NCBI GenBank assembly: GCA_965214095.1
Contig: CBDCAZ010000001.1
Span: forward strand, 1-32,066
Reading direction: 5' to 3'
Length of the DNA: 32,066 nt
Source of the DNA: Candidatus Poribacteria bacterium
GTDB taxonomy: Bacteria; Poribacteria; WGA-4E; WGA-3G
The position numbers and the translations under genes are program-made. How positions within the stretch are numbered: the stretch's first letter is position 1; every line of letters starts with the position of its first letter. Below, piece by piece: positions 1 through 28,319 of this stretch. Under the pieces are notes generated by a model, which had not been told where the DNA came from, did no database searches, and was given only the letters and a program-made list of their open reading frames with translations.

Positions 1-120
1 ACCGAAAGCTGCATGTGAGAGATTTGCGATTGCCAAAAATGCGCAATTTTCGGTTGCCATTGACAGCGGGCTAGCGGCAACAATAAACGCCCCGAGGCCA
101 ACCCCGGGGCGTCGCTGAAC

Positions 121-159
121 AGAAATAGAAAAAGCCCCGGAACCCGAAGGCTCCGGGGC
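121..159 (-). terminator. Rho-independent terminator downstream of ssb
   Basis: Minus strand reads GCCCCGGAGCC-TTCG-GGTTCCGGGGC (11-bp stem with one G-U pair, cUUCGg loop) followed by TTTTTCTATTTCT, 14 nt after the ssb stop. Confidence 0.9.
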
Positions 160-173
160 GGGCGGACAATCGC

Positions 174-581
174 TCAGGCGGCGAGGTCCATGTCGTATGC
201 TTCCGCGGGCGGCGCCGGCGGCCGGTCCTGCTCCGGCCTGGGGTCGAGGAAGTTGATGGAACCGCGCGGGCCGACCACGATCTCGGTCGTGTAGCGGTCA
301 TTGCCGGCACGGTCCTGCCATTTGCGTGTGCGCAGCTTGCCGGTGATGTGGACCTGGCGGCCCTTCGCGGCGTGCTTGCGCAGCATGGCGACCAGGCCGT
401 CCTGGAAGACGACAATCCGGTGCCACTCCGTGGACTTCTTGTATTCGCCGCTCTGGCGGTCCTTGTAGACCTCGCTGGTGGCGATGGAGAAATTGGCGAC
501 GTCACCGCCGCTCTGCATGGTGCGGAACTCGGGGTCCCCGCCCAGATTGCCGATCAGGTCGACGCGATTGAGGCCGTTCAT
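174..581 (-). CDS. ssb: Single-stranded DNA-binding protein (mobile-element type)
   Basis: MNGLNRVDLIGNLGGDPE...FSIATSE...TEWHRIVVF...GKLRTRKWQD...RYTTEIVV is a canonical SSB OB-fold. Start moved to the ATG at 581, which has a GCAGGGAG RBS upstream. Short tail ends YDMDLAA rather than DDIPF. Confidence 0.96.
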   Translation of the reverse strand: MNGLNRVDLIGNLGGDPEFRTMQSGGDVANFSIATSEVYKDRQSGEYKKSTEWHRIVVFQDGLVAMLRKHAAKGRQVHITGKLRTRKWQDRAGNDRYTTEIVVGPRGSINFLDPRPEQDRPPAPPAEAYDMDLAA

Positions 582-625
582 GGTACTTGCTCCCTGCAAG
601 AGGTTGGTTGCGAGTTGCTCGAACT

Positions 626-669
626 CACCCCGAACAACCCCTTCCCAGCCTTCGCGGCGTGGATGCCGC
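626..669 (-). promoter_or_regulatory. Conserved upstream motif, copy A (before ssb)
   Basis: Plus strand CACCCCGAACAACCCCTTCCCAGCCTTC followed by a GCGGC-N6-GCCGC hairpin; matches the copies at 1076 and 2461. Confidence 0.7.
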
Positions 670-712
670 AAAGGCCGGAGAAGGGGAAGACAGACGGGGA
701 TGCAGGGAGGAC

Positions 713-1015
713 CTATCGCTGCCGCAACATATGACCCCAGACGGCATAGACGCCCCAGTACTGGACGCCGGAGTCCGGCTTCTTCTCGCAGCGGCAGATG
801 AGGATCTCGTTGCGCGCCGGGCGCAGGTCCCGCACCGTGGCCCGCGACAGGGTCAGCGGATGGCCCTTTCGGCCCGGCAGGCGGCGGATGTCGCCGTCGA
901 TGGTGGTGCGGTAGCGCTCGACCACATAGGTCTTGTCCTCGAGGCCGCGCCCGAAGAGGTGGGTGAGGAAGGTATTCGCATCGGGGCGAAGGAAGGAAGC
1001 CGTCATGCCGGTCAT
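713..1015 (-). CDS. Hypothetical protein (100 aa)
   Basis: Part of ORF 713..1198. The ATG at 1015 has a GGAGAT RBS and the same 5' leader as the gene starting at 2396. No family recognised. Confidence 0.7.
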   Translation of the reverse strand: MTGMTASFLRPDANTFLTHLFGRGLEDKTYVVERYRTTIDGDIRRLPGRKGHPLTLSRATVRDLRPARNEILICRCEKKPDSGVQYWGVYAVWGHMLRQR

Positions 1016-1120
1016 GGGGGATATCTCCGCTTGGGGAAGGACGCGGGCGCCGGTCGGACGGCAGACCCGTATCGATACCCCGACAAACCCCTTCCCGACC
1101 TTCAGCAGCGTTGCGGCTGC
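1013..1120 (-). repeat. Conserved upstream leader/motif, copy B
   Basis: CATGGGGGATATCTCC...GCGGG.GCCGGTCGGACGG...ACCCCGACAAACCCCTTCCCGACCTTC aligns with 2394..2487; GCAGC-N6-GCTGC hairpin at 1105-1120. Confidence 0.8.
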
Positions 1121-1151
1121 CGGGGACCGGGAAGGGGGGCGACGGGCCGCG

Positions 1152-2396
1152 CTACCGGCCTGCGGCCATGGGCGCGGCGTCGGTGATGATCTCGACATCG
1201 TCGATCGTGAGCTTGGCGTAGGCCAGCGCGCCCGCGACCTCCATGGGCGTCTCCCAGGTGCCGTGGTCGGTGCCGGTGGCGATCTCGATCACGGTGTAGC
1301 GGGTGGGCAGGTCCGGCATGCCGCGATACTCGTAGCCGCGCTGGCGGTCGAGGCAGGGGCGGCACTCCCGCATGAGGGGTTCCGGGGGCCGCTGGCCGCA
1401 GCGGGGACAGAGGCCGGCCGACTGGCGCTCGCATGTTACGCGGTGGTAACGGCGTCGGGCGCTTGCGAGGCGCGCCTCACGGCACGGGGCGCAGGATCCG
1501 GACTCACCGACCGGGGCGCGCTTTCCGCAATAGACACACATGCCCCGGGCGCGGGCGTCGGCGACCCTGCGGTGCCACCTCGCGCGCTCGCCGGCGCGGT
1601 GGCTGTCCCGGCAGGGCTCGCACGCGGTGAACCCGGCTTCCGGGGGCTCTTTTCCACACCGGATGCAAAGGTCTTGCGTGACGCGGGCGAGGACCCTGCG
1701 GTTGTACCGGTCCAGCCAGACGGCAAGGCAGGCCTCGCAGGCGGTTCGACCGCGAACGGCCGATGCCTGTCCGCAGACCAGGCACAAACCGACGGCGCGG
1801 CGGGCTTCCCGGCGGCGTCTGGCGGCCTCCCTGTCCCGTTTGGCGGTGAGCGGCTGGCAGTCGGCACAGCGGCGGCGTCCCGGGGCGGGGGGCGCCTTGC
1901 CGCATTCGATACAGAGCGACCGGTCGGCCTGCCGGCGCTGGCGCTCGGTGCGGTCGCGATGGGCCTGGCGCCGGGCCTCGAGGCAGTCCTCGCAACTGGT
2001 CTTGCCGTCTGCGGGCCTGTTCTCCCCGCAGCGCAGGCACAGGCCGGCCTTGTGCCGTTCATCACGCAGGCGCTGCTTGCGGGCACGGTTTGCCGCGCGT
2101 TCGTTCTCCCGGCAGGCGTCGCAGCGGCGGGGGCCGGGTTTCGGGATGGCGGTTTGGCAGTCGCGGCAAAGGCCGAGATTGTACAGAAGGAGGCGGCGCT
2201 TGCGTTCCGACTTGCGGGAACTGGCGCGGCGGCGCTCTATGCAGCCGGCGCAGTATTTCGCGCGCTCCGCGGGAACCTTGCCACAATGGCAAAGGCCCTG
2301 CGCGGGAGGCGCGGCGTCGGTGGAAGTGCCGGCGCGGCAGCAATGACAGCCCGCTTCGGCAGGCGGATGCGGATGACAGGGGGCGGAAGCCGGCAT
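1152..2396 (-). CDS. Tandem Cys4 zinc-finger repeat protein (8 repeats, Arg-rich linkers)
   Basis: Eight ~42-aa units of the form (G)LCxxC-x~11-CxxC plus an Arg-rich helix, then a ~55-aa non-repetitive C-terminal domain. GGAGAT RBS upstream. Confidence 0.85.
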   Translation of the reverse strand: MPASAPCHPHPPAEAGCHCCRAGTSTDAAPPAQGLCHCGKVPAERAKYCAGCIERRRASSRKSERKRRLLLYNLGLCRDCQTAIPKPGPRRCDACRENERAANRARKQRLRDERHKAGLCLRCGENRPADGKTSCEDCLEARRQAHRDRTERQRRQADRSLCIECGKAPPAPGRRRCADCQPLTAKRDREAARRRREARRAVGLCLVCGQASAVRGRTACEACLAVWLDRYNRRVLARVTQDLCIRCGKEPPEAGFTACEPCRDSHRAGERARWHRRVADARARGMCVYCGKRAPVGESGSCAPCREARLASARRRYHRVTCERQSAGLCPRCGQRPPEPLMRECRPCLDRQRGYEYRGMPDLPTRYTVIEIATGTDHGTWETPMEVAGALAYAKLTIDDVEIITDAAPMAAGR

Positions 2397-2507
2397 GGGG
2401 GATATCTCCTGCTGGACGAACGGGCGCGGGAGCCGGTCGGACGGGCGTCCCCGCGGAAATCACCCCGACAACCCCTTCCAAACCTTCGGACGGGCCGCGG
2501 CGGCGGC
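2394..2507 (-). repeat. Conserved upstream leader/motif, copy C
   Basis: Aligns with 1013..1103; core CACCCCGACAACCCCTTCCAAACCTTC at 2461-2487; GCCGC/GCGGC stem at 2494-2507. Confidence 0.8.
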
Positions 2508-2714
2508 ATCCGGCCAGTCGGGCGCGCAGGCGAGCGCCGCGACAACCCGGATCGGGGAAAATGGAGAGGCGGAAACCGGGCCGCCGGTTTTTCGGCTGTG
2601 CCCGGACGCCTTCCATGGTGTTACCGGGGTGGGACTTCAGCAGCCGGGCGCCGTTTTCGACCGCCGCCGGCAGGATGGCGGCCGGCGTCACGCCCTGGTG
2701 GTGGCGCCGGGCCA

Positions 2715-2846
2715 AGCCTGGCGATCACCGCGGCCGAGGCCGGGAGGCGCGTCTATTACGCCACGCTCGCGGGGCTGATCGACTCCCTCACCGAGGCGAA
2801 GACCGCCGGCAACCTGTCCCACCGCCTGCGCGTGCTCACCCACCCC
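2715..2846 (+). pseudogene. istB: IS21-family IstB ATPase internal fragment
   Basis: SLAITAAEAGRRVYYATLAGLIDSLTEAKTAGNLSHRLRVLTHP resembles the IstB segment between Walker A and Walker B; both Walker motifs are missing. Confidence 0.8.
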
Positions 2847-2880
2847 GGCATCGAGCCTGGGGGGACGACCCCACGCCCCA

Positions 2881-2932
2881 GGTGGGAACTTTTGGATCAC
2901 ATGAAATGAGAACTTTTCGGTCCCAATTGACA
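2881..2932. mobile_element. IS21-family terminal repeat (right end)
   Basis: Two copies of TG(G/A)GAACTTTT 24 bp apart (2883, 2907), ending in ...TTGACA. Multiple subterminal repeats and a terminal CA are typical of IS21 ends, and the istB fragment is adjacent. Confidence 0.7.
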
Positions 2933-2949
2933 CCGTCGCCGACAGGACG

Positions 2950-3040
2950 GCGGCCGGGGGTGCCGCGCCTTGTGTCACCGCTTAAATTGCAGGGGGTGCG
3001 CTTTGATTTCGCGGATTGGAGACCTTAACGGTGCTCCCGG
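2950..3040. repeat. ~90-bp direct repeat, copy 1 (oriT candidate)
   Basis: Aligns with 5648..5737; exact 33-bp shared core TTGCAGGGGGTGCGCTTTGATTTCGCGGATTGG (2987-3019). Confidence 0.9.
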
Positions 3041-3044
3041 ATAG

Positions 3045-3253
3045 GCGGACGCGGCGTTTCGCGCCTACTTCGGGCTGGAGCCACCGGCGCAGCAGCAGGA
3101 CCTTGCGGCGCTCACGCCCGGGGGTTTCGCCGTGGTGCGCCGCGAGGCCGAAATCCTGGACCTGCTCGACGAGCCGGAGGAGCTTGCCCGGATGCTCCAC
3201 GAGGAATGCGAGGCAAGCCGGGGCACCCGCAGGTCGTGGGCTTGCGGGCATGA
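3045..3253 (+). pseudogene. C-terminal fragment of an AAA+ ATPase
   Basis: AAFRAYFGLEPP...LTPGGFAVVRREAEIL...LHEECEA, then after a frameshift KPGHPQVVGLRA-stop; resembles the LTPGDFAVV...ECEAK...IGF tail of proteobacterial AAA ATPases. In-frame TAG at 3042 and no N-terminus. Confidence 0.55.
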
Positions 3254-3704: not shown

Positions 3705-5402
3705 ATGGAATACATCCCGATACGGGTCAGCGACATTGTGAAACACGTGAACCATGACTGGTATCTTCCGGCAATTCAGCGTGAACTCGAATGGAATACG
3801 GTCAGAATAGAACGTCTCTTCGATTCCATCTTGTCCGATTTCCCCATAGGTTCATTCCTATTTTGGAACTTGGAGGAGAAGAACAAGAGCGAATGGCCTA
3901 TTTATGAATTCATTCGCGACTACGATGAAGACAAGCCTCACAACGTCTTGGCTAACATCCATGGGATTCGGAAGGATCTTACGCTGGTTCTCGATGGGCA
4001 ACAAAGAATTACATCTCTGTATATCGGCCTGATGGGATCTTATCGCTTTTTCTATTATCGTTGGCGTATGACGCGATTATACCTCAATTTGCTCAAGCCA
4101 CCAGTCCCGAATGAAGAAAATCCGGAGGAACTTGCCCACGAGTTCTCGTTTCGCGAGAATGGCCACGCGACCAACGACCTAGAAAAGTTGTGGTATCCAG
4201 TTGGTCGAATACTCGACTTTAACGACGCTGAAGATGCCAAGGCAGATATGAAGCAAACACTGTCCAGATTTCCTGAAGACGCACAGGAAAACGCCAATAA
4301 GCTTATCGGACGACTGCACAATCGTATCCACACCACGTTGATCGGAAACTATTATCTCGAAAAATCCCAAGACTATGACAAGGTTCTACAGATCTTCGTT
4401 CGCTCCAATTCTGCCGGGCAGCCATTGGCGTATTCCGACTTGCTGCTTGCAACGGCAACGGCGAAGTGGGACACCCTTGACGCTCGTAGCGAGATTCACA
4501 ATTTTACCGATTTGCTCAACGAAACCGGTACCGGCTACAAGTTCGGCAAAGATTTTGTGCTAAAGGCCTGCCTCTATCTCTGCGAATCTCTGCCAATACA
4601 GTACAAGGTCAAGAATTTTTCGAAGTCCAACCTCCTGACCATCGAATCCAACTGGGAGTCCATCAAGGATACGCTTGCTGTGACGGTGCGCTTGATTTCC
4701 CGTTTCGGCTTCCAAGCGAAAAACGTCGTGGCACCACTGGCCCTGCTCCCGATTGCCTTTTACCTGCAGAAGCGGGGCGATCCGAACTTCGACAAGTCAT
4801 CGAGCGTCGAAGACGCGGAAGCTCAGATCGCCATTCGAAAATGGTTTGTGTTTGCGACCCTCAAGAATGCATTTGGCGGCTCCTCAGATACGACGTTGAC
4901 ACGTCTTCGCCAGATACTGACGAAAGCTGGTTCGGCATTCCCTGCGGAAGAAATGTACAGATCTCTTCAGATCGAGCCGTCGTTGAGCGACGCGGAAGTG
5001 GATCGGATGTTGGAATATCAATACCAGGGCCGTTACACTAATTTGATTCTGTCGTTGTTGTATCCCGATAGAGACTGGAAAGATGCGGTGTTTCATGAGG
5101 ACCATATATTCCCGCAATCTGAATTCAAGGTAACGTTGTTGAGGGGACGATGTTATGATGATACCAAAATCCAGTCGTATATGTCGCGGTTCAACACGCT
5201 GCCGAACCTTCAGCTTCTGACCGATTCCGAGAATATGTCGAAGGGTGCTACACCTTTCGACAAATGGCTAAAGACCAGGGACGCGAAGTACCGATGTCGC
5301 CATCTAGTCCCGGGTTTGACAGATTATTCTTTCGACAACTTCGAAGAGTTTTTTAACGCCAGACGGCAATTGATAGTGGCGGCACTCAAGGCACTTTCCT
5401 GA
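3705..5402 (+). CDS. DUF262 + C-terminal HNH (DUF1524-like) protein, GmrSD-family putative modification-dependent restriction nuclease
   Basis: LPAIQRE, LFDS..PIGS..W, VLDGQQRITSL and IFVRSNSAG (DUF262/ParB-like NTPase); HEDHIFP...NTLPNLQLL...EN (HNH). Visibly lower GC than the flanks. Confidence 0.88.
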   Translation: MEYIPIRVSDIVKHVNHDWYLPAIQRELEWNTVRIERLFDSILSDFPIGSFLFWNLEEKNKSEWPIYEFIRDYDEDKPHNVLANIHGIRKDLTLVLDGQQRITSLYIGLMGSYRFFYYRWRMTRLYLNLLKPPVPNEENPEELAHEFSFRENGHATNDLEKLWYPVGRILDFNDAEDAKADMKQTLSRFPEDAQENANKLIGRLHNRIHTTLIGNYYLEKSQDYDKVLQIFVRSNSAGQPLAYSDLLLATATAKWDTLDARSEIHNFTDLLNETGTGYKFGKDFVLKACLYLCESLPIQYKVKNFSKSNLLTIESNWESIKDTLAVTVRLISRFGFQAKNVVAPLALLPIAFYLQKRGDPNFDKSSSVEDAEAQIAIRKWFVFATLKNAFGGSSDTTLTRLRQILTKAGSAFPAEEMYRSLQIEPSLSDAEVDRMLEYQYQGRYTNLILSLLYPDRDWKDAVFHEDHIFPQSEFKVTLLRGRCYDDTKIQSYMSRFNTLPNLQLLTDSENMSKGATPFDKWLKTRDAKYRCRHLVPGLTDYSFDNFEEFFNARRQLIVAALKALS

Positions 5403-5647: not shown

Positions 5648-5737
5648 GCGGCCGTGGGTGCCGTGCCTCGTGTCGCCGCTTCGTTTGCAGGGGGTGCGCT
5701 TTGATTTCGCGGATTGGGGATCCTATGGTGCTCCCGG
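5648..5737. repeat. ~90-bp direct repeat, copy 2 (oriT candidate, upstream of MobC-like gene)
   Basis: Exact 33-bp core at 5685-5717; lies ~85 bp before the RHH relaxosome-type gene. Confidence 0.9.
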
Positions 5738-5822: not shown

Positions 5823-6197
5823 ATGGCGGCACCGGGAAACGCGCGTTCTGTCACCGTGTTCCCCGGGAGGAGGAACGGTTTGGCCGGGGATGATGGCAGG
5901 AAGAGGCCGCGCTCGGTGATGGCGACCGACAGCGAGTGGCGCCTCGTGCGCGACCGGGCGGCAAAGGCGGGGCTGTCGGCTTCGGAGTTCCTGCTGTCGC
6001 GCGGGCTTGCGCCTGCGGAGCCGGCGGTCGGGGGTGGCGGGCTGCCGCCCGCGGCGCAGCGGCGCCTTGCGGTCGATCTGCGCCTTCTGGCGCTGGCGGA
6101 GCGCCTGCGGCTGGCGCAGGAGGGCCGGGAGGGCGTCTGGCGCCGTCTGGTGGAGGAAGCGGAAGCCTCGGTGGCCGATGACGAGAGGGAGGGCTGA
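5823..6197 (+). CDS. Ribbon-helix-helix relaxosome accessory protein (MobC/NikA-like)
   Basis: RPRSVMATDSEWRLVRDRAAKAGLSASEFLLSRGL is an RHH mobilisation-protein pattern, and the gene lies near a relaxase. Start codon uncertain. Confidence 0.72.
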   Translation: MAAPGNARSVTVFPGRRNGLAGDDGRKRPRSVMATDSEWRLVRDRAAKAGLSASEFLLSRGLAPAEPAVGGGGLPPAAQRRLAVDLRLLALAERLRLAQEGREGVWRRLVEEAEASVADDEREG

Positions 6198-6203
6198 GCG
6201 GCC
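6124..6203. repeat. 80-bp direct repeat, copy 1 (3' end of MobC-like gene)
   Basis: 78 of 80 positions identical to 7919..7998; includes the TGA stop. Confidence 0.95.
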
Positions 6204-6687: not shown

Positions 6688-7914
6688 TTGCGCCTGAACC
6701 TTTCGTTTGAACCCGATCTCTTCGTGGCCCAACTGGGTCACGAAATAGCCGCAGGTGGCCTGACAGTCGTCGATGCAGTTGAGAGGTTTCTCTCAGATTG
6801 GCTGGAGAATGCCATCACCGGATGCCTCGGCGATAGAATCGTCAAGGCTCCCAACTCAATTGTGAATCCTACATACTACGTCAATCGATTCCAAAACCTT
6901 GCCGCACTCAGTCATGCCGGATATTCCACTTGGTATCCGGAAGTGCGTTTTTCCACGGGCAAGGGTGATGATGTAGACATTACTCAGTTGAGTGCGTCTG
7001 GCATTGAGCTCCGTAGCATTAGGTATGGCGGCGACGTTGAACGCCATTACGCCCACAAAATGAAGGAACTCAAGACGCAAGTAAACCATTCAATTCGTCT
7101 AAACGAAGTAAGAATATCTCCGGATCTCTTCATTCAAGTTATACAGGTATTGGCAAATCACCGTAAACTTTCGCAACCCCATATAGCCAACTTAACTGTG
7201 GGCATCGAACGATTTGTCGACGACAGAATTGAAGGATTCAGGACGGTCGCCTTTGACCATGTCGTTACCGGCGAGCGGCACTTCTGTTCATGCCACTCTG
7301 ACGCGCATGAGGCAATGCTCATGGATGCCAGAGAACGGCTTCCAAGTTTTGTCTCGGGTTCCTGGCCACATCGCGTCGTTTCTTTGCTTCAAGGCGCTCG
7401 ATATACGGACGACATTTGCCATTTCTGCGTTGCAGAACAGCACGGGAAGAACGCTCACGTAGAATGGTACGGCAGTCAGATTCGAAAGCATTATCAACCA
7501 TATGTTGATCTGCTTGTTCGCGGTAAGGTCATGGATCGCCGAACAGCGCGCGCAGAAACGATGCGTCGTCTTTCGATCAGCCGGTGGGTACGCGAGGACG
7601 AGCTATACGCAGTAATTCACAAGCTCTTTCCTGACCGTAAGATTCGCCGTGAGGCTTCCCCAACTTGGCTGGGTCAGCAGCGCCTGGACATCTATCTTCC
7701 CGAACTTGCCCTTGCGATCGAACACCAGGGAGAACAACACTTCTTTCCCATTGAAGCGTTTGGCGGACAAAGCGCATTGGAGAAGACGCGGGAGCGCGAC
7801 CGGCGCAAACGGGCACTGTGCAATGAGAACGGCGTTACGGTCATTGATGTGCGTTTCGATGACCCGATAACGACATCTAGTCTTAGAAGCCGCCTTAAGC
7901 GCTGGCTCTGCTGA
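6688..7914 (+). CDS. Unknown N-terminal region + Cys/His Zn-binding cluster + C-terminal Vsr/DUF559-like PD-(D/E)XK endonuclease
   Basis: TTG start with GGAG RBS; HFCSCH...CHFC; WLGQQRLDIYLPELALAIEHQGEQHF...RDRRKRALC. Lower GC than the flanks. Confidence 0.78.
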   Translation: MRLNLSFEPDLFVAQLGHEIAAGGLTVVDAVERFLSDWLENAITGCLGDRIVKAPNSIVNPTYYVNRFQNLAALSHAGYSTWYPEVRFSTGKGDDVDITQLSASGIELRSIRYGGDVERHYAHKMKELKTQVNHSIRLNEVRISPDLFIQVIQVLANHRKLSQPHIANLTVGIERFVDDRIEGFRTVAFDHVVTGERHFCSCHSDAHEAMLMDARERLPSFVSGSWPHRVVSLLQGARYTDDICHFCVAEQHGKNAHVEWYGSQIRKHYQPYVDLLVRGKVMDRRTARAETMRRLSISRWVREDELYAVIHKLFPDRKIRREASPTWLGQQRLDIYLPELALAIEHQGEQHFFPIEAFGGQSALEKTRERDRRKRALCNENGVTVIDVRFDDPITTSSLRSRLKRWLC

Positions 7915-7918
7915 AGTA

Positions 7919-7998
7919 GCCGTGAGGGCGTCTGGCGCCGTCTGGTGGAGGAAGCGGAAGCCTCGGTGGCCGATGACGAGAGGGAAGGCTGAGCGGCC
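7919..7998. repeat. 80-bp direct repeat, copy 2 (orphan copy of the MobC-like 3' end)
   Basis: 78 of 80 identical to 6124..6203; begins 4 bp after the stop of ORF 6688..7914. Confidence 0.95.
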
Positions 7999-8058: not shown

Positions 8059-11000
8059 TCAGTATGAGAGGCCGTATCCCCTGGTGAGTTCCTGGCGCCG
8101 CGCGTAGACCTCGCCCATGTGCCGCCAGCATTCCCCGGAGAGGTTCTCGAAGCTCCGGGCGAGGTCGGCGGGCAGGGCCTGTGCCAGCCCGGACAGGGAG
8201 AGCCTGTCGTCGGGATCGATGGCCTCGCGGATATGGTGGCGGAAAGCGGCAAGGGTCTCTTCGGGCCAGGCGCGGTTCCTGCGGGCGAGTTCGACCAGCG
8301 CGTCACGGTCGCGGTCGTCTTCGGGCCTTGTGACGGCGCACATCAGCATGTCGAGGCGGCCGGGGTCGTGGCGCTGGTCGCCGGCGGCGAACGCGCCGGC
8401 GTCCGGCAGTTCGATCCGGCGGGGCCCCGCCTCGGGATCGCGCGCGGCGCGGCGGATCGCCTCGATCTCGGCAACGAGGTCGGCCATGTCGATCCAGCGG
8501 CGGTCGACATGGTCGCTCTGGGTGGGGTTGCCGGAGGCGCGCCAGTTCCGGAAGGTCTTGACGAACTGCTCGGCCCGGACGTCCCACCTGCGGTAATCCG
8601 GATCGACGTCGTTGAGGGCCCGGGGCGGGGGTTCGGGCGCCGGGGGGATGTCGTCTTCGGCCCGGAACAGCCCGAGGGCGCGGCCGATGAGCCCCGGACG
8701 GGCGGCCTCCTCCTCCGGGGCGGGCGGTTCCGGGGCAAGGGCGCGGTCGAGAATGGCGGGATATGTCTCCAGATGGGCCCGGGCCCGCCTGATTGCGTTC
8801 CGGATCGTGTCGCGGACACGGATTTCGCTGTCGATCACGGCCTGGAACTGCTCAAGGTAGCGGCGGTCCCTGTCGGAGAGCCCGGGGGTTGCGAGCAGCC
8901 GCGCGGCCTCGGCGCGCAGCGGCTCGATGCCGGGCTGGTAGATGATGGCGCTCTCGCCGGCGGCGGCGTCGGCCTCGTCAACGGCATCGCGGATGCGCCG
9001 GCAGCCGCGGGCAGCCTCCGCCTCCCGCTGCGCCCCGGCCCTGCCGGCGGCCGCCTTCGCCTCCTCCCGCAGCGTCTGGCCCGCGCCCTCCATGAGCGCC
9101 TCCGCCGCTTCCGCCGCCGCACGCCATGCCGCCGCATCCTGCGGGACGGCCATCCGGATCTGCGCTTCCAGATCGTCCAGCGCCCGCAGCGTGCCTCTTG
9201 TCGTCACCGCCCGTTCCCGGTGCCGCTCCGCCCGGTCGCGCCATTCGGCCGCCGCCCGGGGAGACCCGTCTTCCAGGGCATCCGCGACCGTCCCGGCGAT
9301 GGCGGACGCGCCGCCATGCGCCGACATCCGCTGCTGCCGCAGTTGCCGCCATGCCTGCACATCCGCCACAGTCAGTGGCGCCATCTCCCGCTCCGCTCGC
9401 GCCGCCTCGGAGATCCGGCGCCCGACCAGCCTGTAGATCCAGCGTTGCACCTCCACATCGAGCGCCCGTTGCCGCGCCCGGGCGTCGCGCGCCACCGCCG
9501 CCTCGCCCGCCACCAGCGCCCTGTCGGCCAGAACGCCGAAGGCCATCGCCGCCTCCCGGGCGGCCGCGCCATGGCGCTCTATAGAGGCCGTGTCGATATC
9601 CCTGTCGGAGAGGGCCCCGGCAGGCGCCAGACGCTCCGAGGCCGCGTCCGCCGCCGCCAGCGCCACGTTCAGAATACGGTAGGCCCGAAGCCGCGCCTGC
9701 ATCCCGGATCCGTTCGTCCTCGCCGCCCCGATACCGTCCCCGTCGGGCGCATGGCCGGCGGCAGCCGCCGCTTCCGTGAACGCCTCGGCGACGGCGGCCG
9801 CCGCGTCCCGCACCCGTTCGACCGCTGCCATCCGCGCCCGCAGCGCCTGCCTGTCCTCCAGCCCGCCCGCCGGCAGGGCGGCGAAGGCGCGTTCGGCCTC
9901 CTCCGCACGGGCCCGCGCCGACGAAAGCGCCGCCTCCGCCTCCACCAGCCGGTGCCGGGCCTCCCCCTGGTACCGCCGATCCGCCCGCAGGCCGTCCAGG
10001 AACTGAGCCGCTATCTCCGCGCGGATGGTGGATTTCGCCGGGACCGCCGTGTCCACCTCGCCGATCGCCTCCAGCGCCGTCAGCCGCGCGCCCGTGTTCG
10101 CCTCCAGCGTCTCCACAAGCTGCTCGCGATTGTCGGTCAGCACCACAGCCTGCTCGCGCGCCCGGCCCAGCTGCACATAGAGCGTCTGCTGGTTCACCAG
10201 CGGCCCGGCGCCCGTGTCCAGCACCGCGATCACCCGGTCATGCGTCTGCCCCTGCGCCGCATGCACCGTGGAGGCATAGGCGTAGGCCAGGTGGCGCAGC
10301 TGCGGGTCGTTCCGCGCGAAGCTCAACTCCCGCCCGTCGGGGAGCCCCATCCACAGCACCCCCTTGCCGATCTCCAGCACGTCGGCCCGGTCGCCATTGG
10401 CAAGGCCGCGCTCCCGGTCGTTGCGGGTCCAGCGCAGCCGCTCGCCTTCCCTGATCCGCAGCGTCTTCGCCTCGAACAGGTCGAGCCGGTAGCGCAGCTC
10501 GCTGCCCGGCTTCAGGTGGCGCGGCCGGCCGTCATCATGGGCAAGCCTGACACGGTCCTCCTCCACCGCCATCACCGTGCAGGCATCGTCCCTGGCGATG
10601 CGGTAATGCTTCATGTCGCGGTTGAAGAGCGCGATATCGCCCTCGCGCCAGTTGCGGGGATCGCCGGTCTCGGCGCGTGTGAGGTTGAGCGGCACCAGGG
10701 TCTCGATCTCCATGGCGCGCCCGCGCAAGGCTCCCTCGGCCTCAAGACCCTCGCGCACCGCCTCCTCGACCCCGGCCCTGAGCGCGCGCGTCGGCACCAG
10801 CAGCGCCGTTGCCGCCCGCGCCTCCGCCGAGAGCCTGAGCCAGAGACCGGCCGCCACACCCGCGATCTCCTCGGCCGGGACTTCCTGCAGATTGCCCCCC
10901 AGATGCGCGAGCGCCGCGCCCGGCTCGCCCTCGATCATCTCCGCGACCGCCGCCCTCAGGTCCGGATCGCGCTGCCGGCGCAACTCGTCCATCTCCACAA

Positions 11001-12783
11001 CGCCCATGCCCGCCTGCTGCATCTGCCGGAAGGGCTGGCCCGCCTCCACGCCCCGCAACTGCCGCTTGTCGCCCACAAGCACGAGGCGCGCCACCTCCAG
11101 ACGCTCCGCAATCCTGAGCAGCGACCGCGCCTGCGCCGTGCCCGCCAGCGACATCTCGTCGACTACCACCACCGCGCCGCCATAGCGTTCTTTCAGGCGA
11201 GCGAGCGTCTCGGCATCCGCGACCCCGTCCGCCACCTCCCGGCAGCGTGTGAGGAACCATTGCAGCGTCCGGCAGGCGAGGCCCGTCTCGCGCGAGAGCG
11301 TCCGCGCCGCAGACGCCGACGGCGCCAGGCCCAGCACAGGCCGCCCGCCCAGGCACGACACGGCCCGGCGCAGCATGACCGTCTTGCCGCTGCCCGCATG
11401 GCCCTGTACGCCCAGCACCCGGTCGCGGCTCTCCAGGATCGAGCGCACCGCCTCGCGCTGGCCTTCGCTCAACCCCGCCAGCGCCTCTTCCGGAACGGCA
11501 TGCGCCGCGAGTGGGCGCACCGCGCCGATGCCGGCCTTCATGCGGGCCAGAACCTCGCGCTCGGCCTTCACCGCCCGCGCCGTCGTCCACGCCGCGCCCA
11601 CCCCGCGCCGGATCGCCGGCAGCAGATGCCTGTCACGCTGCAGTTCGGCAAAGGCGCCCTCGATCTCCTCCAGACGGTAAAGCCCCGGCCTGTGCGCCAG
11701 AGCCAGCGCCAGCGCCTCCCTCTCCGGGAACACGCTCGCCCGCTCCTCCAGCTGCTCCAGAACCCGCCAGGCGATCTCCAGCGCCGTCGGCGGCTCCGGG
11801 TGGCGCGCGCCGATCTTCCTGAGCGTCCGCTTGGCGAGACCGCGCTCCTCCGCGAAATCCCGCCACAGCGCCTCCAGCTCCGCACGCCGCGGCTCGTTCT
11901 TGCGCGCCCTTGTGGCCAGCGTCGCCATCTGCGCCGTGCGCGCATCGTAGCGCCAGCCCTTCTCCCGGATGAAGTCGAGGATCTGCCGCCGCCGGCTCGA
12001 GAACGCCTCCAGAGCCGCCCGCGGCCAGCCCGATATCTCGAACCCCGGCACACGCCCGATCATCGACGGCCTGAGCGCGAACCCCGCCTTCCTCAGCCCG
12101 TGCGCCAGTTCGTTGCGGTAGAAGGCCCCGACCAGCTTCTCCGACCGGCGCAGCAGGCCGATCTCGGCACTCCGCCACTGTCCGCCATCGCGGGTCATGT
12201 TGGCGATCACGCAATGGGTGTGAAGCTGCGGGTCGTTGTTGCGGCTGGTGATGTGCCGGAAGGTTGCCGCCACCAGCATGGGTGCGTTCACCTGCACCGA
12301 GCGCCGCTCCTCCGGGCTCCAGCGCCGCGTCCGCAAGAGCCGCGTCTCGATGAACGCCAGCGTCGCGCGCACCGCCGCGTCATGCGCGCGCATCGCCCGC
12401 GCGGAGCCCGGACCGCCGAGCAGCGCCTCCAGCGATACCGACTTCGGCGCCGACAGCGTGATGTCCACACCCGGGCGGTGCTCGTGTTCACCGTCGCGCA
12501 GCCGCCCCAGGCGAATGTCCGTGCCCGGCACATGGCCCTGAAGCACGCGGCGGAACTCTCCCGGCTCCACATGGCCGCTCAGCCCCAGCGCCGCCGCCCC
12601 GCTGCCCCGCCACCGGCTCGCCTTGCGGTGCTCGTCATCGCGGCGGGCGTAATAGTCCTCGCGCTCATTAGCCTGCCCCGGGCTCGATCCGGGGGTCGCC
12701 GGCGCGCCCAGCCCGTGGCCCTCGCGGCGGAAATAATGCACCGTCGAGGAGGCCGAGGTGAGGCTGACCACCGTCGCTACCAT
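8059..12783 (-). CDS. trwC: MOBF conjugative relaxase-helicase (TrwC/TraI family) with long C-terminal extension
   Basis: N-terminal YF...DYY, DITLSAPKSVS, HITSRNNDPQLHTH (HUH), FSSRR; RecD-like helicase motifs GHAGSGKT, VVVDEMS, LVGDKRQL, YASTVHAAQGQT, LYVQLGRAR. Confidence 0.95.
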   Translation of the reverse strand: MVATVVSLTSASSTVHYFRREGHGLGAPATPGSSPGQANEREDYYARRDDEHRKASRWRGSGAAALGLSGHVEPGEFRRVLQGHVPGTDIRLGRLRDGEHEHRPGVDITLSAPKSVSLEALLGGPGSARAMRAHDAAVRATLAFIETRLLRTRRWSPEERRSVQVNAPMLVAATFRHITSRNNDPQLHTHCVIANMTRDGGQWRSAEIGLLRRSEKLVGAFYRNELAHGLRKAGFALRPSMIGRVPGFEISGWPRAALEAFSSRRRQILDFIREKGWRYDARTAQMATLATRARKNEPRRAELEALWRDFAEERGLAKRTLRKIGARHPEPPTALEIAWRVLEQLEERASVFPEREALALALAHRPGLYRLEEIEGAFAELQRDRHLLPAIRRGVGAAWTTARAVKAEREVLARMKAGIGAVRPLAAHAVPEEALAGLSEGQREAVRSILESRDRVLGVQGHAGSGKTVMLRRAVSCLGGRPVLGLAPSASAARTLSRETGLACRTLQWFLTRCREVADGVADAETLARLKERYGGAVVVVDEMSLAGTAQARSLLRIAERLEVARLVLVGDKRQLRGVEAGQPFRQMQQAGMGVVEMDELRRQRDPDLRAAVAEMIEGEPGAALAHLGGNLQEVPAEEIAGVAAGLWLRLSAEARAATALLVPTRALRAGVEEAVREGLEAEGALRGRAMEIETLVPLNLTRAETGDPRNWREGDIALFNRDMKHYRIARDDACTVMAVEEDRVRLAHDDGRPRHLKPGSELRYRLDLFEAKTLRIREGERLRWTRNDRERGLANGDRADVLEIGKGVLWMGLPDGRELSFARNDPQLRHLAYAYASTVHAAQGQTHDRVIAVLDTGAGPLVNQQTLYVQLGRAREQAVVLTDNREQLVETLEANTGARLTALEAIGEVDTAVPAKSTIRAEIAAQFLDGLRADRRYQGEARHRLVEAEAALSSARARAEEAERAFAALPAGGLEDRQALRARMAAVERVRDAAAAVAEAFTEAAAAAGHAPDGDGIGAARTNGSGMQARLRAYRILNVALAAADAASERLAPAGALSDRDIDTASIERHGAAAREAAMAFGVLADRALVAGEAAVARDARARQRALDVEVQRWIYRLVGRRISEAARAEREMAPLTVADVQAWRQLRQQRMSAHGGASAIAGTVADALEDGSPRAAAEWRDRAERHRERAVTTRGTLRALDDLEAQIRMAVPQDAAAWRAAAEAAEALMEGAGQTLREEAKAAAGRAGAQREAEAARGCRRIRDAVDEADAAAGESAIIYQPGIEPLRAEAARLLATPGLSDRDRRYLEQFQAVIDSEIRVRDTIRNAIRRARAHLETYPAILDRALAPEPPAPEEEAARPGLIGRALGLFRAEDDIPPAPEPPPRALNDVDPDYRRWDVRAEQFVKTFRNWRASGNPTQSDHVDRRWIDMADLVAEIEAIRRAARDPEAGPRRIELPDAGAFAAGDQRHDPGRLDMLMCAVTRPEDDRDRDALVELARRNRAWPEETLAAFRHHIREAIDPDDRLSLSGLAQALPADLARSFENLSGECWRHMGEVYARRQELTRGYGLSY

Positions 12784-13076: not shown

Positions 13077-16000
13077 ATGGCTACAATTAAGCCGAGCCGA
13101 GCCGAGCCGAGCCGAGCCGAGCCGCTCTTCCTGCGTCTTCATGGTGGCGCCGCCTAGGGCGCTCCGCCTCCCGGCCTGAGCTTTCTTCCGCTAGCGGGCG
13201 TTCCGACAGCCGCCGGCCCGCTTCCTCCTCCGACAGCTTCGCTCCCTCTCCCACCCGCGCCGCCGCGGGCGTTGGTCCTACCGTTCGCCGTCCCCGGCGC
13301 GGCCTGCTGCCCGCCCTGTTTGTCCTGCCGCTGCTCCTCGGGCTGGCAACCGAAGCCGCAGCGCAGAGCCAGAGCGTGCCGACGCTCAAGGTCGAGATAC
13401 CGACCGTCACCGAAGGCGAGACCGGCACCATCAAGCTCACCCTGAGCCAGGAGTCGAGCCAGTCGATAGATACTCAGGTTAGCGCCTTCTCTATAGTTTG
13501 CGGCAGTGGCGTTACCTGCCCGCAAGGCACGACCGCAGCGGGCGCCAGCGACTATTCCTTAACCAGCGTGACGATAACCTTCGCTCCTAGCGAGACGACC
13601 AAGACCGTCTCCTTCACCACGACCGACGACAGCACGTCCGAGTCGACCGAGGTGTTCCAGCTTGCGGTTACCGGTCTCGCTGCCTCCGAAGCCACCATCG
13701 ACCCCAGCACGCCGGCAGACGGCCAAGGTTTTGGACAACCATACTGGTTAGTCCGCATCCAGGACAACGACAATCCGGGGAACCCGAACGTCACGATTAC
13801 CCCCGGCACGTCGCCGGTGACGGAGGGGACGGCTGCGACCTTCACGGTGACGGCGACGCCGGCGCCCACTGCGGCGACGACGGTCTCGGTGGCGGTGACG
13901 GAGGAGACGAGCGGCAGCCAGGATTTCGTGGCTTCGAGCAACGAGACCACGCACACGGTGACCATTCCGGCGTCGGGAAGCCCGAACGCGGGCACGGCCA
14001 CGCTCACCATCCCGACGGTGGGCGACACCAACCAGGAGCCGCATGGCGCGGTGACGGCGGCGGTGAACACCGGCACCGGCTATACGGTGGGCAATCCGTC
14101 ATCGGCGACCGTGACGGTGCTGGACGACGACGGCACGTCGGCGCCTCCGGAGGTGTCAGTGCGGTTGATGACCGGCGAGGGCGAGAACCGCAACTCCGAC
14201 GGCGAGGTGGAGAAGCCCGAGTCCGACGGCACGGTGTCGTTCCCTCTATCGCTGGACGCGCAACCGTCGGCGGCGCTGACAGTGTGCGTCCGAGTGACCG
14301 AGTCGGGCGATGTCGACCGGGTCGCATTGGCCGATGAAGGTATCAAGACGGTGAGTTTCAACTCCGGCGTGCAGACGGGGTCAATCGACGTGGCGTGGAC
14401 CGACACAGATGCGGACGACCTGGACAGCGTCATCACCGTTACGGCAGTCCCGTCCAACACCGTGGGCTGCAGCAGCACGGACGTGTACACGGTGTCGAGC
14501 ACCACCGGCTCAGACAAGGTGAAGGTCTCGGATGACGAAGTGACCGCATTGTCGTTGGCTTCTTCGGACACGGAGATGGGTGAAGGCGACGCTTCGAACA
14601 CGGCGGTGATAACGGTGTCTCTGGGTCGTGCGCTGATCAGCGGTGAGTCGGTGGTGGCGCCGATCACGCTCGCTACCGACAACGGCGCACGACTGCCCGG
14701 CCACGCGACACCGGACTTTGCGGTGGCCGCAATGGGCACCGGCGTGGCGCTGAGCAACGCGACGTCCGCGACGCCCCGACTGACGTTCACCGGCTCCGAC
14801 TCAAGCACCGTGCAGGAAGCGACGGTGACGCTGACTCCAGTGGCGAACCGGGACGACGGTGACACGGACAATGAGACGATCACCGCAACGCTTTCCCTGC
14901 TGACCGGCACGGGTTCGGGCACTGTGGTGACCGGCGGCGGCGTGGCAGTCGTACAGGCATCTTCGGTGGCGACCCTGACGCTGGAGGACGACGAGGCCGC
15001 GCCGCCGGCGTGCCCTGCCCAGAACAACAGCCTCAGCGTTGGCAGCATTCGCATTCTCGAAAACGGCGAAACGACCTATTGCGTGCGGCTTCCCACCGCG
15101 CCTTCCGGTGGCAACACCACCGTCACCATCGGCAAGGCGGGCAGATATCAGGGGGCCGCGAACGCAAGCACAACAACACTCACCTTCACGGCATCGAACT
15201 ACATGAACCCGCAGCCGGTAACGGTGACCGGCGTGGACCAGCCGAACCTCCATCTCAACCGCACACTGTCATTGACCCACGCGGCCAACGGCGGCGGCTA
15301 CTCGAACCAGGGACTGGGCTGGGTTTCGGTGACGGTGGACGACGCGCCCGAGCTTGAGGTGTTTGATCTGGCGGTAATGAACGCCAATGACTACGCTGCC
15401 AAACAGCGCCCGAACACCGTCAAGGCGACGCGGGGGTTCAGGTATTTCCAGAATGACATGGTGCCAATTCTGCCGCTGCGTTACCTGCTGCGCCTGTCGA
15501 ACCGCCCGGCGACCGGCGAAACGGTGACGGTGACGGCAACATCGAGCGACTTCGCCAAGTTCGGCCTGTCTCGGACCCCGGGCGGCACGCCGCAGCCGTC
15601 GCTGACGGTGACCTTCGAGGACCGCGATGCCGACCGGGTCTGTTTCAATGGGGGTCACGGCTCTCCTGATGGAGCTAACACGCCGAACCCGGACATGTCC
15701 TGGGCGTGCAATCGCCGGATCTGGGTCATCAGCACGCAGAATGACAAAGCGACCTACCGGAAGGGCTGTGCCGACATCACCCACACGGCCTCGGGCGGCG
15801 GCCTGCGCGGCACGGCTATCGGGACGATCCGCGCCCACGCCGTTGCTGCCGGCAACCACCGTGCCCCCTCCAACGCCCCGGGCCGCGGATGCGCCCTCAT
15901 CACCAGCGAACTGCGCGGCCGCTCCGCACCCGCCCTTGCCGCCCCGGCGCCCACCGAGGCAGTCTCCAACCTGCAGGTGACGGCGGTGGACGACACCAGC

Positions 16001-20927: not shown

Positions 20928-21923
20928 CTATTCCCGGCCAGCCTCCGGGAGTCGAACCTTCTCGACCAGGAAGCGTTTGATCCGGTCGAGTACGGCATCA
21001 AGCTTATCGCCACCTGCATTAACCTTGTGCAAATCGCTCAGAGCGTCGACCGCTTCCCGTTCGTTGAGGCTCGGGAAATGCTCCGCGAAGGTTGCTGGGC
21101 TGACTTCAAAATACAACTGGCCGCCGTTGTCGCCGGCCGAGGGGTACGCGTAGATCAGCATCTTCGTGCCTTTGTCCGGCGGCGCGATCGTTACCGATAA
21201 CTTGTTAGGCTTTACCCGGAGACCAGCCGCTTCCGCGATGCTCACAAAGCGGTCGAACTGCTCGCCCACATCCGCGTCTACGGCCCGGCGACGGACCGCT
21301 TCGACTGAGAATTGGCGAGGGGGAGATGATGGCCTGGTCGGTTCGTCGACCACCTCACGGATCAACAGCTGCGGGCCGCCATCCAACTCGAACACCTCGA
21401 AGCTGACGACACCGATCGGGACAGCGAAGCGGCCGAGAAACTCGTTCATTCGCTCCAGGCCGGGGTGGATCCCGGCACCGACAAGCAGCACCGCAATCTC
21501 GCGCCCCTCCTCTTCAGTCCGCAACTGCCGGTTCAGTCTTTCCGACAGTTGTACAGCGTCGCCGAATTTACAGAGGCCGGGTTCCAGCTTCTTCTTGAGT
21601 TCTTCGCCGTCGAGACGCGCAATCGAAGAGGCATAGTAGAGCCCCTGTGTCAGCGCGCCGGAGTCGAGTGTCCCGGATTTGATCTCGATCACCACCCAGC
21701 GATCCTGAGTGTCGATGGCCAGCAAATCGAGGATCCCGTCGTCGATCCTTACCTGCCGGCCGACCAGTGTCAGTCCTTCTCCGATCAGCGTCACATCGTT
21801 CACAATCCAGTCTTCGAGGTGCTTCTCCAGTCCGACGTGGGAGCGCTCGACCTTCCTCGGTGCCGACTGCCGCGCGGCATGCTCGTCGCGCTGTCGGTCT
21901 ATGGTCCACGCCGCCAATTTCAC
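20928..21923 (-). CDS. NucS/EndoMS-like (DUF91) PD-(D/E)XK endonuclease-domain protein
   Basis: LEKHLEDWI...LVGRQV...ILDLLAID...VVIEIKSG...ALTQGLYYA (E-x-K plus QxxxY). GTG start with GAGGGGAGG RBS. Confidence 0.82.
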   Translation of the reverse strand: MKLAAWTIDRQRDEHAARQSAPRKVERSHVGLEKHLEDWIVNDVTLIGEGLTLVGRQVRIDDGILDLLAIDTQDRWVVIEIKSGTLDSGALTQGLYYASSIARLDGEELKKKLEPGLCKFGDAVQLSERLNRQLRTEEEGREIAVLLVGAGIHPGLERMNEFLGRFAVPIGVVSFEVFELDGGPQLLIREVVDEPTRPSSPPRQFSVEAVRRRAVDADVGEQFDRFVSIAEAAGLRVKPNKLSVTIAPPDKGTKMLIYAYPSAGDNGGQLYFEVSPATFAEHFPSLNEREAVDALSDLHKVNAGGDKLDAVLDRIKRFLVEKVRLPEAGRE

Positions 21924-22421
21924 AACCGCAGCCTCCCCTCAACGCTCTTCCGTCGAATACAAACGTTGCAGTACGACTACAACATCCGCTCCACCCTGGT
22001 CGATGCGCAGGCTGTCGCAAGGCAGCATGCGAAGCGTCGGTAGCCCGGGAAGTCCTGCGCAGCGTAGTCCGGCTTCTGTGCTTCCCCGATTTCCTGCTGT
22101 GCCGGGAGGCGAAGGCCAGCCCTGCTTGCTGGCGGGCCGGAACCCGCATTCAATCTCGGCGATACTCCGAGCGGCTCTTCGGGAAGTTGCCATGCCTCCC
22201 CCTTATCGCACCCATGCAGGACCGGTATGCTGCGCTTGAGGGACCAGTCTGGACTGCCGGGGGCGGGATCTTGCAAGGGGCGTGGCATGAAAAGCGTCGG
22301 GGAACCATGAGCAAGGCCTTTTTCGACGGGCCTGTCGAAAATTCTTCGAAACCCTGCCTCTCGCGCATATCCCTCGTCTGGATGATCGCGCCGTCATGGC
22401 CGGCGACAGAATGGAGCGGGC

Positions 22422-22665: not shown

Positions 22666-22738
22666 TACTAGGCCGGCGAAGCCCGTGTCGAGGATATCCC
22701 TCATCTCGATTGCGACGCTTGATGACGAACCGTGGCGA

Positions 22739-28303: not shown

Positions 28304-28319
28304 AAGGCAAGCGTGAACC

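Follow-up and report, generated by a model that had tools for sequence, protein, structure and literature searches.

Introduction

The systems that seem closest in logic to the repeated element described here are the Reg576 regulon of plasmid p576, the ArdK regulon of R388 and the Frpo/ssi sequences of F-like plasmids. The element lies in a contig of 32,066 bp (GenBank CBDCAZ010000001.1, from an assembly assigned to Candidatus Poribacteria; we refer to this whole stretch as the window), in which copies of a conserved block precede three consecutive minus-strand genes, ssb among them. These three copies are the short form of a larger, lineage-specific repeated cis element. We tentatively read the full unit as a composite of a terminator-like hairpin and a non-canonical promoter/operator, which would define an establishment regulon and serve as a shuffling joint; to this reading we give slightly less than even weight.

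In the Bacillus plasmid p576, four ordinary promoters and a ribbon-helix-helix repressor make up the Reg576 operator regulon (Val-Calvo et al., 2018, PMC6294495), whose logic, in the sections of that account used here, is transient expression after transfer. Our locus is similar in that several establishment genes each have a shared short motif upstream, and the two AAGG units that lie 9 nt apart in its core loosely recall the dual heptamer presented in those sections. Unlike p576 as portrayed there, it shows no canonical promoter or regulator that we could find, has up to 12 copies of an unrelated sequence, and holds many of these copies in a long hairpin. For the IncW plasmid R388, the promoter data drawn on here have ArdK repressing PardC, Porf7, Porf12, Porf14 and Pssb (Fernandez-Lopez et al., 2014, PMC3937220), that is, a promoter set including Pssb under one element-encoded repressor. 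A TrwC-type relaxase is common to R388 and our elements, whereas the motif, the hosts (Alphaproteobacteria, with chromosomal elements) and the hairpin architecture differ from what those data describe; no ArdK homologue was seen, although none was searched for.

Stem-loops with a comparable double role are the PeSLs of T4-like phages, composite terminator/promoter cassettes at which genetic exchange takes place (Comeau et al., 2014, PMC4122927). As far as that description of the cassettes extends, the likeness lies in small repeated stem-loop units between small unknown genes of a plastic region, with breakpoints at cassette edges; unlike these phage units with their recognisable early promoters, ours belongs to a conjugative element, its promoter part is unrecognisable and the core itself is one arm of the stem. 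The PeSL cassettes are reportedly also the subject of a 2010 study by Arbiol et al. Frpo/ssi sequences are said to have been described by Masai and Arai in 1997 as single-stranded DNA (ssDNA) promoters of F-like and IncI plasmids. In the descriptions considered here, Frpo is a long stem-loop that rebuilds sigma-70 -35/-10 hexamers, whereas our stems measure 15-21 bp, contain no such hexamers and are missing in most copies; by the same descriptions, both systems have repeated structured elements upstream of ssb and early genes and, to judge from the geometry of our long arrays alone, would have the transferred strand as template. The CUP repeats of IncN plasmids (pKM101) are conserved upstream repeats before several leading-region genes; they are much longer and come with ordinary promoters. 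Full-text literature searches, in which the supplementary Frpo candidate tables of Samuel et al. (2024) were not covered, returned no description of our element. Like Reg576, ArdK and Frpo/ssi, it is repeated ahead of establishment genes; what sets it apart is its sequence, hosts and copy number, the lack of a recognisable promoter, and a conserved core that is itself an arm of a co-varying hairpin.

Results

A conserved block precedes three consecutive genes of the window

We searched for the core with the pattern GAAGG-N3-GGAAGGGGTT-N3-CGGGGT, allowing up to three mismatches, and found three matches, which all lie on the minus strand of the window (627-653, 1077-1103 and 2461-2487), compared with a mean of 0.00 in 100 dinucleotide-preserving shuffles of the window. 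The distances from core to start codon are 45 nt (copy A), 61 nt (copy B) and 64-65 nt (copy C), which confirms the starting observation of an earlier note on this DNA that one core stands before each of three consecutive genes. A sequence-only covariance model trained on 122 copies, the window's own three among them, recovered the same three (E 2.9e-9 to 1.7e-8), with the next-best window match at E 0.072. On the minus strand the gene order is Cys-rich gene, 100-aa gene, ssb:

622..653, minus strand: copy A, conserved block of ~32 nt before ssb (first A of AAGG at 652; covariance model E 4.2e-9)
1072..1103, minus strand: copy B, conserved block before the 100-aa gene (covariance model E 1.7e-8)
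2456..2487, minus strand: copy C, conserved block before the Cys-rich gene, first of the array and with no significant hairpin upstream (E 2.9e-9)
174..581, minus strand: ssb, 135 aa (Pfam SSB E 8.1e-30)
713..1015, minus strand: 100-aa gene, family F3 (no match in Pfam, NCBIfam or PHROGs)
1152..2396, minus strand: gene for a Cys-rich, Arg-rich protein of 414 aa with repeated CxxC pairs, family F1 (from its translation)

No further exact core copy was present in the rest of the assembly (4 contigs, 5,245,196 bases in total); a looser scan with up to four substitutions added five weak matches on the main contig, each with 3-4 substitutions. A search of the whole window against Rfam at gathering thresholds gave 0 matches. 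The window is one entire contig of this assembly, and since its G+C content is 64% compared with 41% for the main 5.2-Mb contig, it is probably not part of that organism's chromosome. Contamination, mis-binning or a co-resident organism would account for a contig that is probably foreign to the main genome. Its relatives are alphaproteobacterial loci with 63-73% G+C. A circular form of the contig was rejected, as its ends do not overlap.

The block recurs in co-oriented arrays in relatives of the window

We scanned one genome per species for exact matches to the pattern and obtained nine loci, three of them true relatives from two metagenome-assembled genomes (MAGs) of Alphaproteobacteria and the other six located, by inspection, in unrelated and apparently coding sequence. 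About 10 of the 37 genomes from the order of one of these MAGs carry motif clusters well above a reversed-pattern control. Among 401 sampled genomes of the class, more than one exact match was found in that MAG (G002) alone, and matches equal control counts in most other genomes of order and class. Metagenome contigs show arrays independently, with 10 same-strand copies each in L058 and L061. Viral contigs gave 0 pattern matches; in the PLSDB plasmid collection, blastn with window positions 1-3100 matched just the coding part of ssb (~70% identity), and tblastn with the 100-aa protein matched none of 72,556 plasmids. Palindromes of the chromosome-wide type known as repetitive extragenic palindromes or bacterial interspersed mosaic elements (REP/BIME) were also considered and rejected: at 0-1 mismatch, the matches listed for G001 and G002 fall in a few clusters. 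The element is confined to these arrays and is not spread across host chromosomes. Separately, two other 17-mers that resemble the core by chance recur identically in more than 20 places in G012 and in at least 15 in G002; these probably lie in insertion sequences or in another repeat family unrelated to the arrays.

We then analysed 25 loci from relatives together with the window. At up to two mismatches they yielded 154 matches, 143 of which are on the array strand and 141 non-redundant. Nearly all of the latter (138/141) have a ribosome-binding site and the start of an open reading frame (ORF) rich in G+C at third codon positions 31-99 nt downstream (median 59), and arrays hold up to 12 co-oriented copies, 250-1700 nt apart. 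The block, with a consensus of ~32 nt (aAAGGTsGGGAAGGGGyTkTyCGGGnnGAnTC), has a sharp 5' edge across the 141 copies: conservation begins at -1/0, the A before AAGG, extends to about +30 and is absent upstream. AAGG and GGGAAGGGG are positions within the core block, and positions that the search pattern left free are conserved as well (T at +4 in 125/141 copies, G at +6 in 136/141).

The 138 downstream proteins fall into 17 families, the most frequent being the Cys-rich family (24), SSB (21), the 100-aa family (18), a membrane coiled-coil family (18), a 58-aa family (12), DUF7146-Toprim (10) and an 85-aa family (10); several other small families, a DnaN-like clamp and a ParB-like protein are also preceded by the block. 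Judged by their predicted products, the genes behind the block are an establishment kit made up of ssb, DUF7146-Toprim, the clamp, the ParB-like protein and many small unknowns. The earlier note had taken the repeated leader for a sign of an establishment regulon or gene-cassette unit, to be supported by enrichment before ssb-, ardC- and parB-type genes. As a repeated and oriented unit that marks the genes of an ssb-containing establishment block, the leader now extends to at least 17 gene families, with the 21 ssb copies and a ParB-like protein among them. A shared operator of the p576 or ArdK type would be repeated in just this manner: three copies in the window, up to 12 per array, and a gene behind almost every one.

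Family F1 stands behind 24 of the 138 copies with a called gene and occurs in almost every array, sometimes twice; it has no family in Pfam, NCBIfam or PHROGs. Its members are built of many CxxC...CxxC units with Arg-rich linkers and a conserved acidic C-terminal domain, and we consider the protein a candidate nucleic-acid binder. The 100-aa protein gave 4 and 26 tblastn matches in two relatives, the larger number in G002, where nine close copies accompany 17 at ~40% identity, the latter in the order 100-aa gene, Cys-rich gene, ssb. In these more distant elements (38-42% identity in the 100-aa gene; loci L048-L050 were considered with them) the repeated core is absent, no 12-mer is repeated, and a degenerate core-like stretch occurs only before ssb. 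An AlphaFold2 (AF2) model of the 100-aa protein had no Foldseek match in the PDB at E <=0.001 and none in the Atlas, and its sole HMMER match to the PDB below E 0.001, the designed protein 7ong_A (E 0.00025), was judged meaningless.

The core forms one arm of a long hairpin at some copies

At copies A and B the core pairs with a pyrimidine arm just upstream:

632..691, minus strand: copy A, long two-part hairpin of 5' pyrimidine arm and core, with inner helix GCGGC/GCCGC and tail TTGTTC (structural model R2, 73.1 bits)
1082..1142, minus strand: copy B, long two-part hairpin in which the arm CCCCTTCCCG pairs with CGGGAAGGGG, with inner helix GCAGC/GCTGC (structural model R2, 72.8 bits)

As RNA, the copy A hairpin folds at -43.9 kcal/mol (z -8.3) and that of copy B at -36.7 kcal/mol (z -4.7), energies that 0 of 200 shuffles matched in either case; the template strands as DNA fold at -19.4 (z -5.3) and -18.0 kcal/mol (z -3.4), respectively. 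The copy C region has no significant fold (z +0.8; 159/200 shuffles as good), and its stem is missing in the closest homologues, where the 3' half is absent (L029) or replaced (L028).

The same division runs through the larger set. An upstream arm complementary to the core at nine or more of 11 positions is present in 56 of 141 copies, compared with 6 of 141 for a downstream control, and 52 copies can pair 13 or more of 15 core positions with upstream sequence, versus one copy when that sequence is shuffled. The hairpin type comprises 56-61 copies (~40%), leaving 80-85 without a hairpin; the structural model finds 56 hairpins at E <=1e-10, copies A and B included. When complete, the hairpin has an outer stem in which up to 15 pairs join the pyrimidine arm to the core AAGGTsGGGAAGGGG, and within it a GC helix of 5 bp and a loop of 6 nt; total stem lengths are 15-21 bp and RNA fold energies -30 to -46 kcal/mol. 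The earlier note had described a small GC stem with co-varying sides just 5' of each core. Such stems are indeed present in the sequence; at copies A and B they are no separate unit but the inner helix of the long hairpin. A hairpin at every copy, as that description implied, is contradicted by copy C and by the hairpin-less majority.

Co-variation was measured in a model-guided alignment, which replaced a plain MAFFT alignment on which RNAalifold, owing to register shifts, had recovered the stem incompletely. Of the cells in the new alignment, 84.7% are paired, compared with 43-63% for slid partners, and 21 cells are changed on both sides, compared with 11.2 in shuffles (1/500 shuffles reach 21). 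The changes lie mainly between outer arm and core; in the inner GC helix, where the earlier note had located the co-variation, just two cells are changed on both sides. The core variant GGGAAAGGG accompanies the arm CCCTTTCCC, with T-A seven times and C-A never at the variant pair; over both forms of this G/A variant, the pair is C-G in 25, T-G in 11, T-A in 7 and G-C in 3 hairpins. At the free core position the pairs are G-C (29), C-G (5) and A-T (1).

Stems end at GGGG, followed by TTGTTC, CTTGTC, TTTTTC and the like. These tails 3' of the stem are T-richer in the hairpin type (3.93 versus 3.31 T in 8 nt, among copies that are not independent). Hairpins are found at junctions in the variable part of the array, distal to the putative origin of transfer (oriT), before ssb (15/21 copies), the 100-aa gene and families F8, F10 and F13. 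Arms are lacking in the fixed-order, oriT-proximal part, before the gene for an 88-aa membrane coiled-coil protein (counted with F4) and families F5, F6, F7 and F9. The first copy of every array likewise has the core without an arm, and solo copies beside unrelated upstream DNA (L026:19685, L028, L047:2287) keep the block from its first bases, also without an arm. Since first-in-array and solo copies lack the arm, the core has a function independent of the hairpin.

Leaders between block and start codon are specific to gene families

Each block is followed by a leader that ends at the start codon:

582..621, minus strand: ssb-specific leader with ribosome-binding site (read from sequence)
1016..1071, minus strand: leader of the 100-aa gene, homologous to the copy C leader as far as the ribosome-binding site (alignment versus shuffles; repeat family D4)
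2397..2455, minus strand: leader of the Cys-rich gene, of the same type as the copy B leader (alignment versus shuffles)

The leaders of copies B and C are homologous 3' of the core, with 50 identical aligned positions over 61 and 64 nt (shuffled mean 37.6, maximum 42), so the earlier suggestion that the two share a leader down to the ribosome-binding site stands. The copy A leader is unrelated to either (29-30 identical positions, the same as shuffles). Past the block, leader sequence is specific to each gene family, and the similarity of the B and C leaders arises because the Cys-rich and 100-aa families have one leader type in common. The ssb leader contains a small hairpin, GAGTT..AACTC, which other ssb leaders keep through U-A to U-G changes. 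An attenuator at copy A, in which the tail would pair with the leader instead of the arm, was rejected, the pairing not being kept in other ssb leaders. Copy A also has GTTC, seven bases and GTTC at 621-635 (minus strand), kept with one mismatch in other ssb leaders and not kept in other gene families. Alphaproteobacterial LexA (SOS) boxes have this GTTC-N7-GTTC arrangement; its presence here may result by chance from the tail and the leader hairpin, or may reflect SOS control specific to ssb.

Hairpins and leaders together raise the possibility that the unit acts at the level of RNA, as an element of one long transcript that serves processing, stabilisation, antitermination or translational control, with the hairpins as RNA stabilisers and not terminators. 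In the arrays the co-oriented genes are closely packed and look like operons, which such an element would accompany. The great stability of the hairpins as RNA is in its favour, as are the sense strand being the more stable in 33 of 51 hairpins, the many G-U pairs at the +4 pair (G-U 41, A-U 5, G-C 4), a small hairpin of its own directly 3' of the block in every leader family, and two purine runs in the core that read like Shine-Dalgarno sequences. We nevertheless find this explanation doubtful. A core that would pair completely in the RNA of hairpin-type copies and stay single-stranded in the rest is hard to square with a single mode of RNA recognition, and the block also stands before array-first and solo genes. 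Start codons follow at anything from 31 to 99 nt, Rfam has no match, and the window leaders fold no better than shuffles (z -1.8, -0.6 and +0.7). Recognition as duplex DNA would be indifferent to whether the core is fully paired in the RNA, as in the hairpin type, or free, as in the other type.

Long arrays lie upstream of the relaxase gene

In all nine loci with a relaxase match, the long array is directly upstream of the TrwC gene and co-oriented with it (9/9), and between array and TrwC gene there are a canonical terminator, two ~90-nt direct repeats and an AT-rich patch. In L023 this region (14977-15600) has a perfect 11-bp terminator stem, direct repeats of ~90 nt at ~15030-15120 and ~15340-15430 and an AT-rich patch, which is a likely oriT; two ORFs with TrwC domains (418 and 1003 aa) come after it. 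From this geometry the long arrays, and they only, would occupy a leading-region position. If the polarity is that of F and R388, these genes would have the transferred strand as their template. Leading-region genes likewise have the transferred strand as template in the part of the Samuel et al. study that deals with them (Samuel et al., 2024, PMC11541004).

Elements of the window type (L024, L026, L031) have a three-gene array that directly follows the relaxase gene. In the window this gene is:

8059..12783, minus strand: TrwC-family relaxase-helicase gene, co-oriented with and upstream of the array (Pfam TrwC E 2.3e-73)

About 300 nt before its start codon (~13090-13130, minus strand), six tandem pentanucleotide repeats are followed by an AT-richer patch. 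This pentanucleotide-repeat region is kept in the close relative L026 and is a candidate oriT region.

The setting of the long arrays suggests a second alternative, in which the block would be an initiation signal active on ssDNA, Frpo/ssi-like in function and not in sequence. A hairpin on the transferred strand would rebuild a duplex core beside a single-stranded conserved flank, and RNA synthesis would start there, with either host RNA polymerase or the Toprim primase-like protein of the element as the enzyme, to give early mRNA and/or primers for the complementary strand. The upstream, co-oriented position in 9/9 loci is as this model predicts; so are the template-strand DNA folds of copies A and B, the co-variation of arms with core, the hairpin at 15 of 21 ssb copies, and the presence of primase-like, SSB and clamp genes in the regulon. 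The stem, however, spans the core alone and not a full promoter, and the 80-85 hairpin-less copies include those of every gene closest to the putative oriT, the genes expected to enter first. The window-type array, moreover, is located behind the relaxase gene. Wobble and mismatch patterns do not single out the template strand either: of 51 hairpins, 33 are more stable on the sense strand and 17 on the antisense strand, and G-T and C-A classes are both frequent, a mixed result from which we call no folding strand. The likeness to Frpo proposed in the earlier note does not extend to architecture, with 0 sigma-70 hexamer pairs in window positions 1-3200 and a stem that consists of the 15-nt core and an inner 5-bp helix. 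On balance we think an ssDNA-active signal unlikely. A more specific form, in which the hairpin copies are a new class of ssDNA-active initiation unrelated to Frpo and the hairpin-less copies fire once the DNA is double-stranded, giving a two-step timing, strikes us as somewhat less probable again. If it were true, the pyrimidine arm of the incoming strand would fold onto the core beside a pre-melted template flank, and ssb and the variable genes would be transcribed, or the strand primed (perhaps by the Toprim protein), before a complementary strand exists.

Homology between arrays breaks at the edges of the unit

We compared ungapped identity profiles of junction pairs having just one neighbour in common (at least 28 pairs). 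Between arrays whose neighbouring genes differ, homology is lost at about -40 and again at about +20 to +30, so that differences in gene content break at cassette edges, as they do in PeSLs. The recurrence of the same 60-70-nt cassette between genes would make it a place where gene content is exchanged between elements.

Breakpoints of this kind could also mark the site of a dedicated enzyme, a site-specific recombinase that moves gene cassettes as at integron attC sites, with the hairpin as folded substrate. The arrays do have the look of cassette arrays, in which imperfect inverted repeats, conserved in their arms and variable at the centre, separate small co-oriented genes. Elements differ in gene content with homology breaking at the repeats, and L023 has a gene for a large serine recombinase 1.6 kb upstream of its array. 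We consider this highly improbable all the same. The part of the array with fixed gene order has the core without inverted repeats, and the arms CCCCTTCCCGG and CCGGGAAGGGG are unlike attC core sites. No integron-type tyrosine integrase was among the scanned proteins, in which the large serine recombinase is the only recombinase and which were not searched systematically for integrases. Homologous recombination between 60-70-nt repeats would explain the breakpoints without a dedicated enzyme, and the strict spacing to start codons points to expression.

Probable terminators and insertions surround the array of the window

A terminator scan marked hairpins on both sides of the three-gene array:

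86..159, minus strand: two canonical terminator-like hairpins with T runs, closing the array 3' of ssb
2568..2585, minus strand: terminator-like hairpin ~80 nt upstream of copy C

Given the latter, copy C follows a likely transcription stop. Two apparent insertions with direct repeats of ~80 nt sit between the relaxase gene and the array. In the first, 78-nt direct repeats (2950-3027 and 5648-5725; 87% identical) bracket 2.7 kb of lower G+C (50-60%) in which the opposite strand encodes a GmrSD-type restriction endonuclease (3705-5402). The second has 80-nt direct repeats at 6124-6203 and 7919-7998 (98% identical) around a 408-aa ORF (6688-7914; 53% G+C; no Pfam family), and a NikA-like gene (5823-6197) extends with its 3' end into the first of these repeats. 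At the far end, window positions 20928-32065 encode a NucS_C-domain protein, a 1007-aa superfamily-1 helicase, coiled-coil and AAA-like ORFs and a DUF2357 protein, and may be a defence-type island.

Discussion

The copies before ssb, the 100-aa gene and the Cys-rich gene belong to a family that is repeated, fixed in orientation and placed before the start codons of a recurring gene set, with a sharp 5' edge, a hairpin that co-varies with the core and breakpoints at its edges. The composite reading set out at the start builds on these observations as follows. Each establishment gene has its own block of ~32 nt, followed by a 5' leader specific to its gene family. The block would be a non-canonical promoter with operator, recognised on double-stranded DNA, and all genes behind it would form one regulon that fires together, for example on entry into a new cell before an element-encoded repressor accumulates. 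At the ~40% of junctions with a hairpin, the 3' end of the preceding gene supplies the pyrimidine arm complementary to the core, and the transcript of that gene could end in a very stable hairpin with a T-rich tail, resembling an intrinsic terminator. The unit as a whole would then be a composite terminator-plus-promoter cassette. Among the functions on the earlier list (promoter, operator, structured RNA or recombination site), a promoter with operator fits best because of the fixed orientation, the 5' edge, the ~32-nt length, the distance of at least 31 nt to the start codon, the presence at first and solo copies and the indifference to RNA pairing. The list was too broad to be refuted as it stood, and our results narrow it, tentatively, toward promoter/operator. 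We infer that a protein binds the block; transcription would start at the block, and at a guess near the conserved purines at +26/+27, and the hairpin may terminate transcription coming from upstream.

Several results weigh against this composite cassette. Positions 1-3200 of the window hold no sigma-70-like -35/-10 pair, and the consensus sequences of sigma-70, extracytoplasmic function (ECF) and sigma-32 promoters do not fit the block. No regulator was found: a NikA-like ribbon-helix-helix protein matches at 24.6 bits against a Pfam cut-off of 27, and the structure predicted by AF2 for the 100-aa protein, confident in one of five models, contains no DNA-binding fold. As for termination, the T-rich tail is also kept at copies without a hairpin, and a simple terminator scan missed the A and B hairpins while it flagged both terminators after ssb; the two hairpins went unflagged because their loops are long and their tails have just four T. 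The co-variation statistics are modest and come from an alignment fitted to the model, and the window-type array is downstream of its relaxase gene, so the window itself has no leading-region position.

A sigma-54 promoter was considered separately. The sigma-54 consensus has GG and GC elements 10 nt apart in its -24/-12 boxes. In the block this spacing is partly present: GG at +2/+3 never varies, yet where the consensus calls for C, 102 of 141 copies have T and 37 have C, and the flanks mismatch; no conserved upstream activator site was seen at the block. We rejected this assignment.

The block is a sharply bounded, searchable cis signal that would delimit an establishment regulon of up to 12 genes, most of them without a known family, and it yields a list of candidate early or anti-defence genes as well as a candidate promoter or operator with an unusual sequence. 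Its carriers are chromosomal TrwC-type elements of Alphaproteobacteria, and the switching of establishment genes is largely unknown outside enterobacterial model plasmids. The hairpin and hairpin-less forms of the same core would provide a natural experiment on ssDNA transcription, and the arrays suggest that a repeated regulatory cassette can act as a gene-shuffling joint in a conjugative element.

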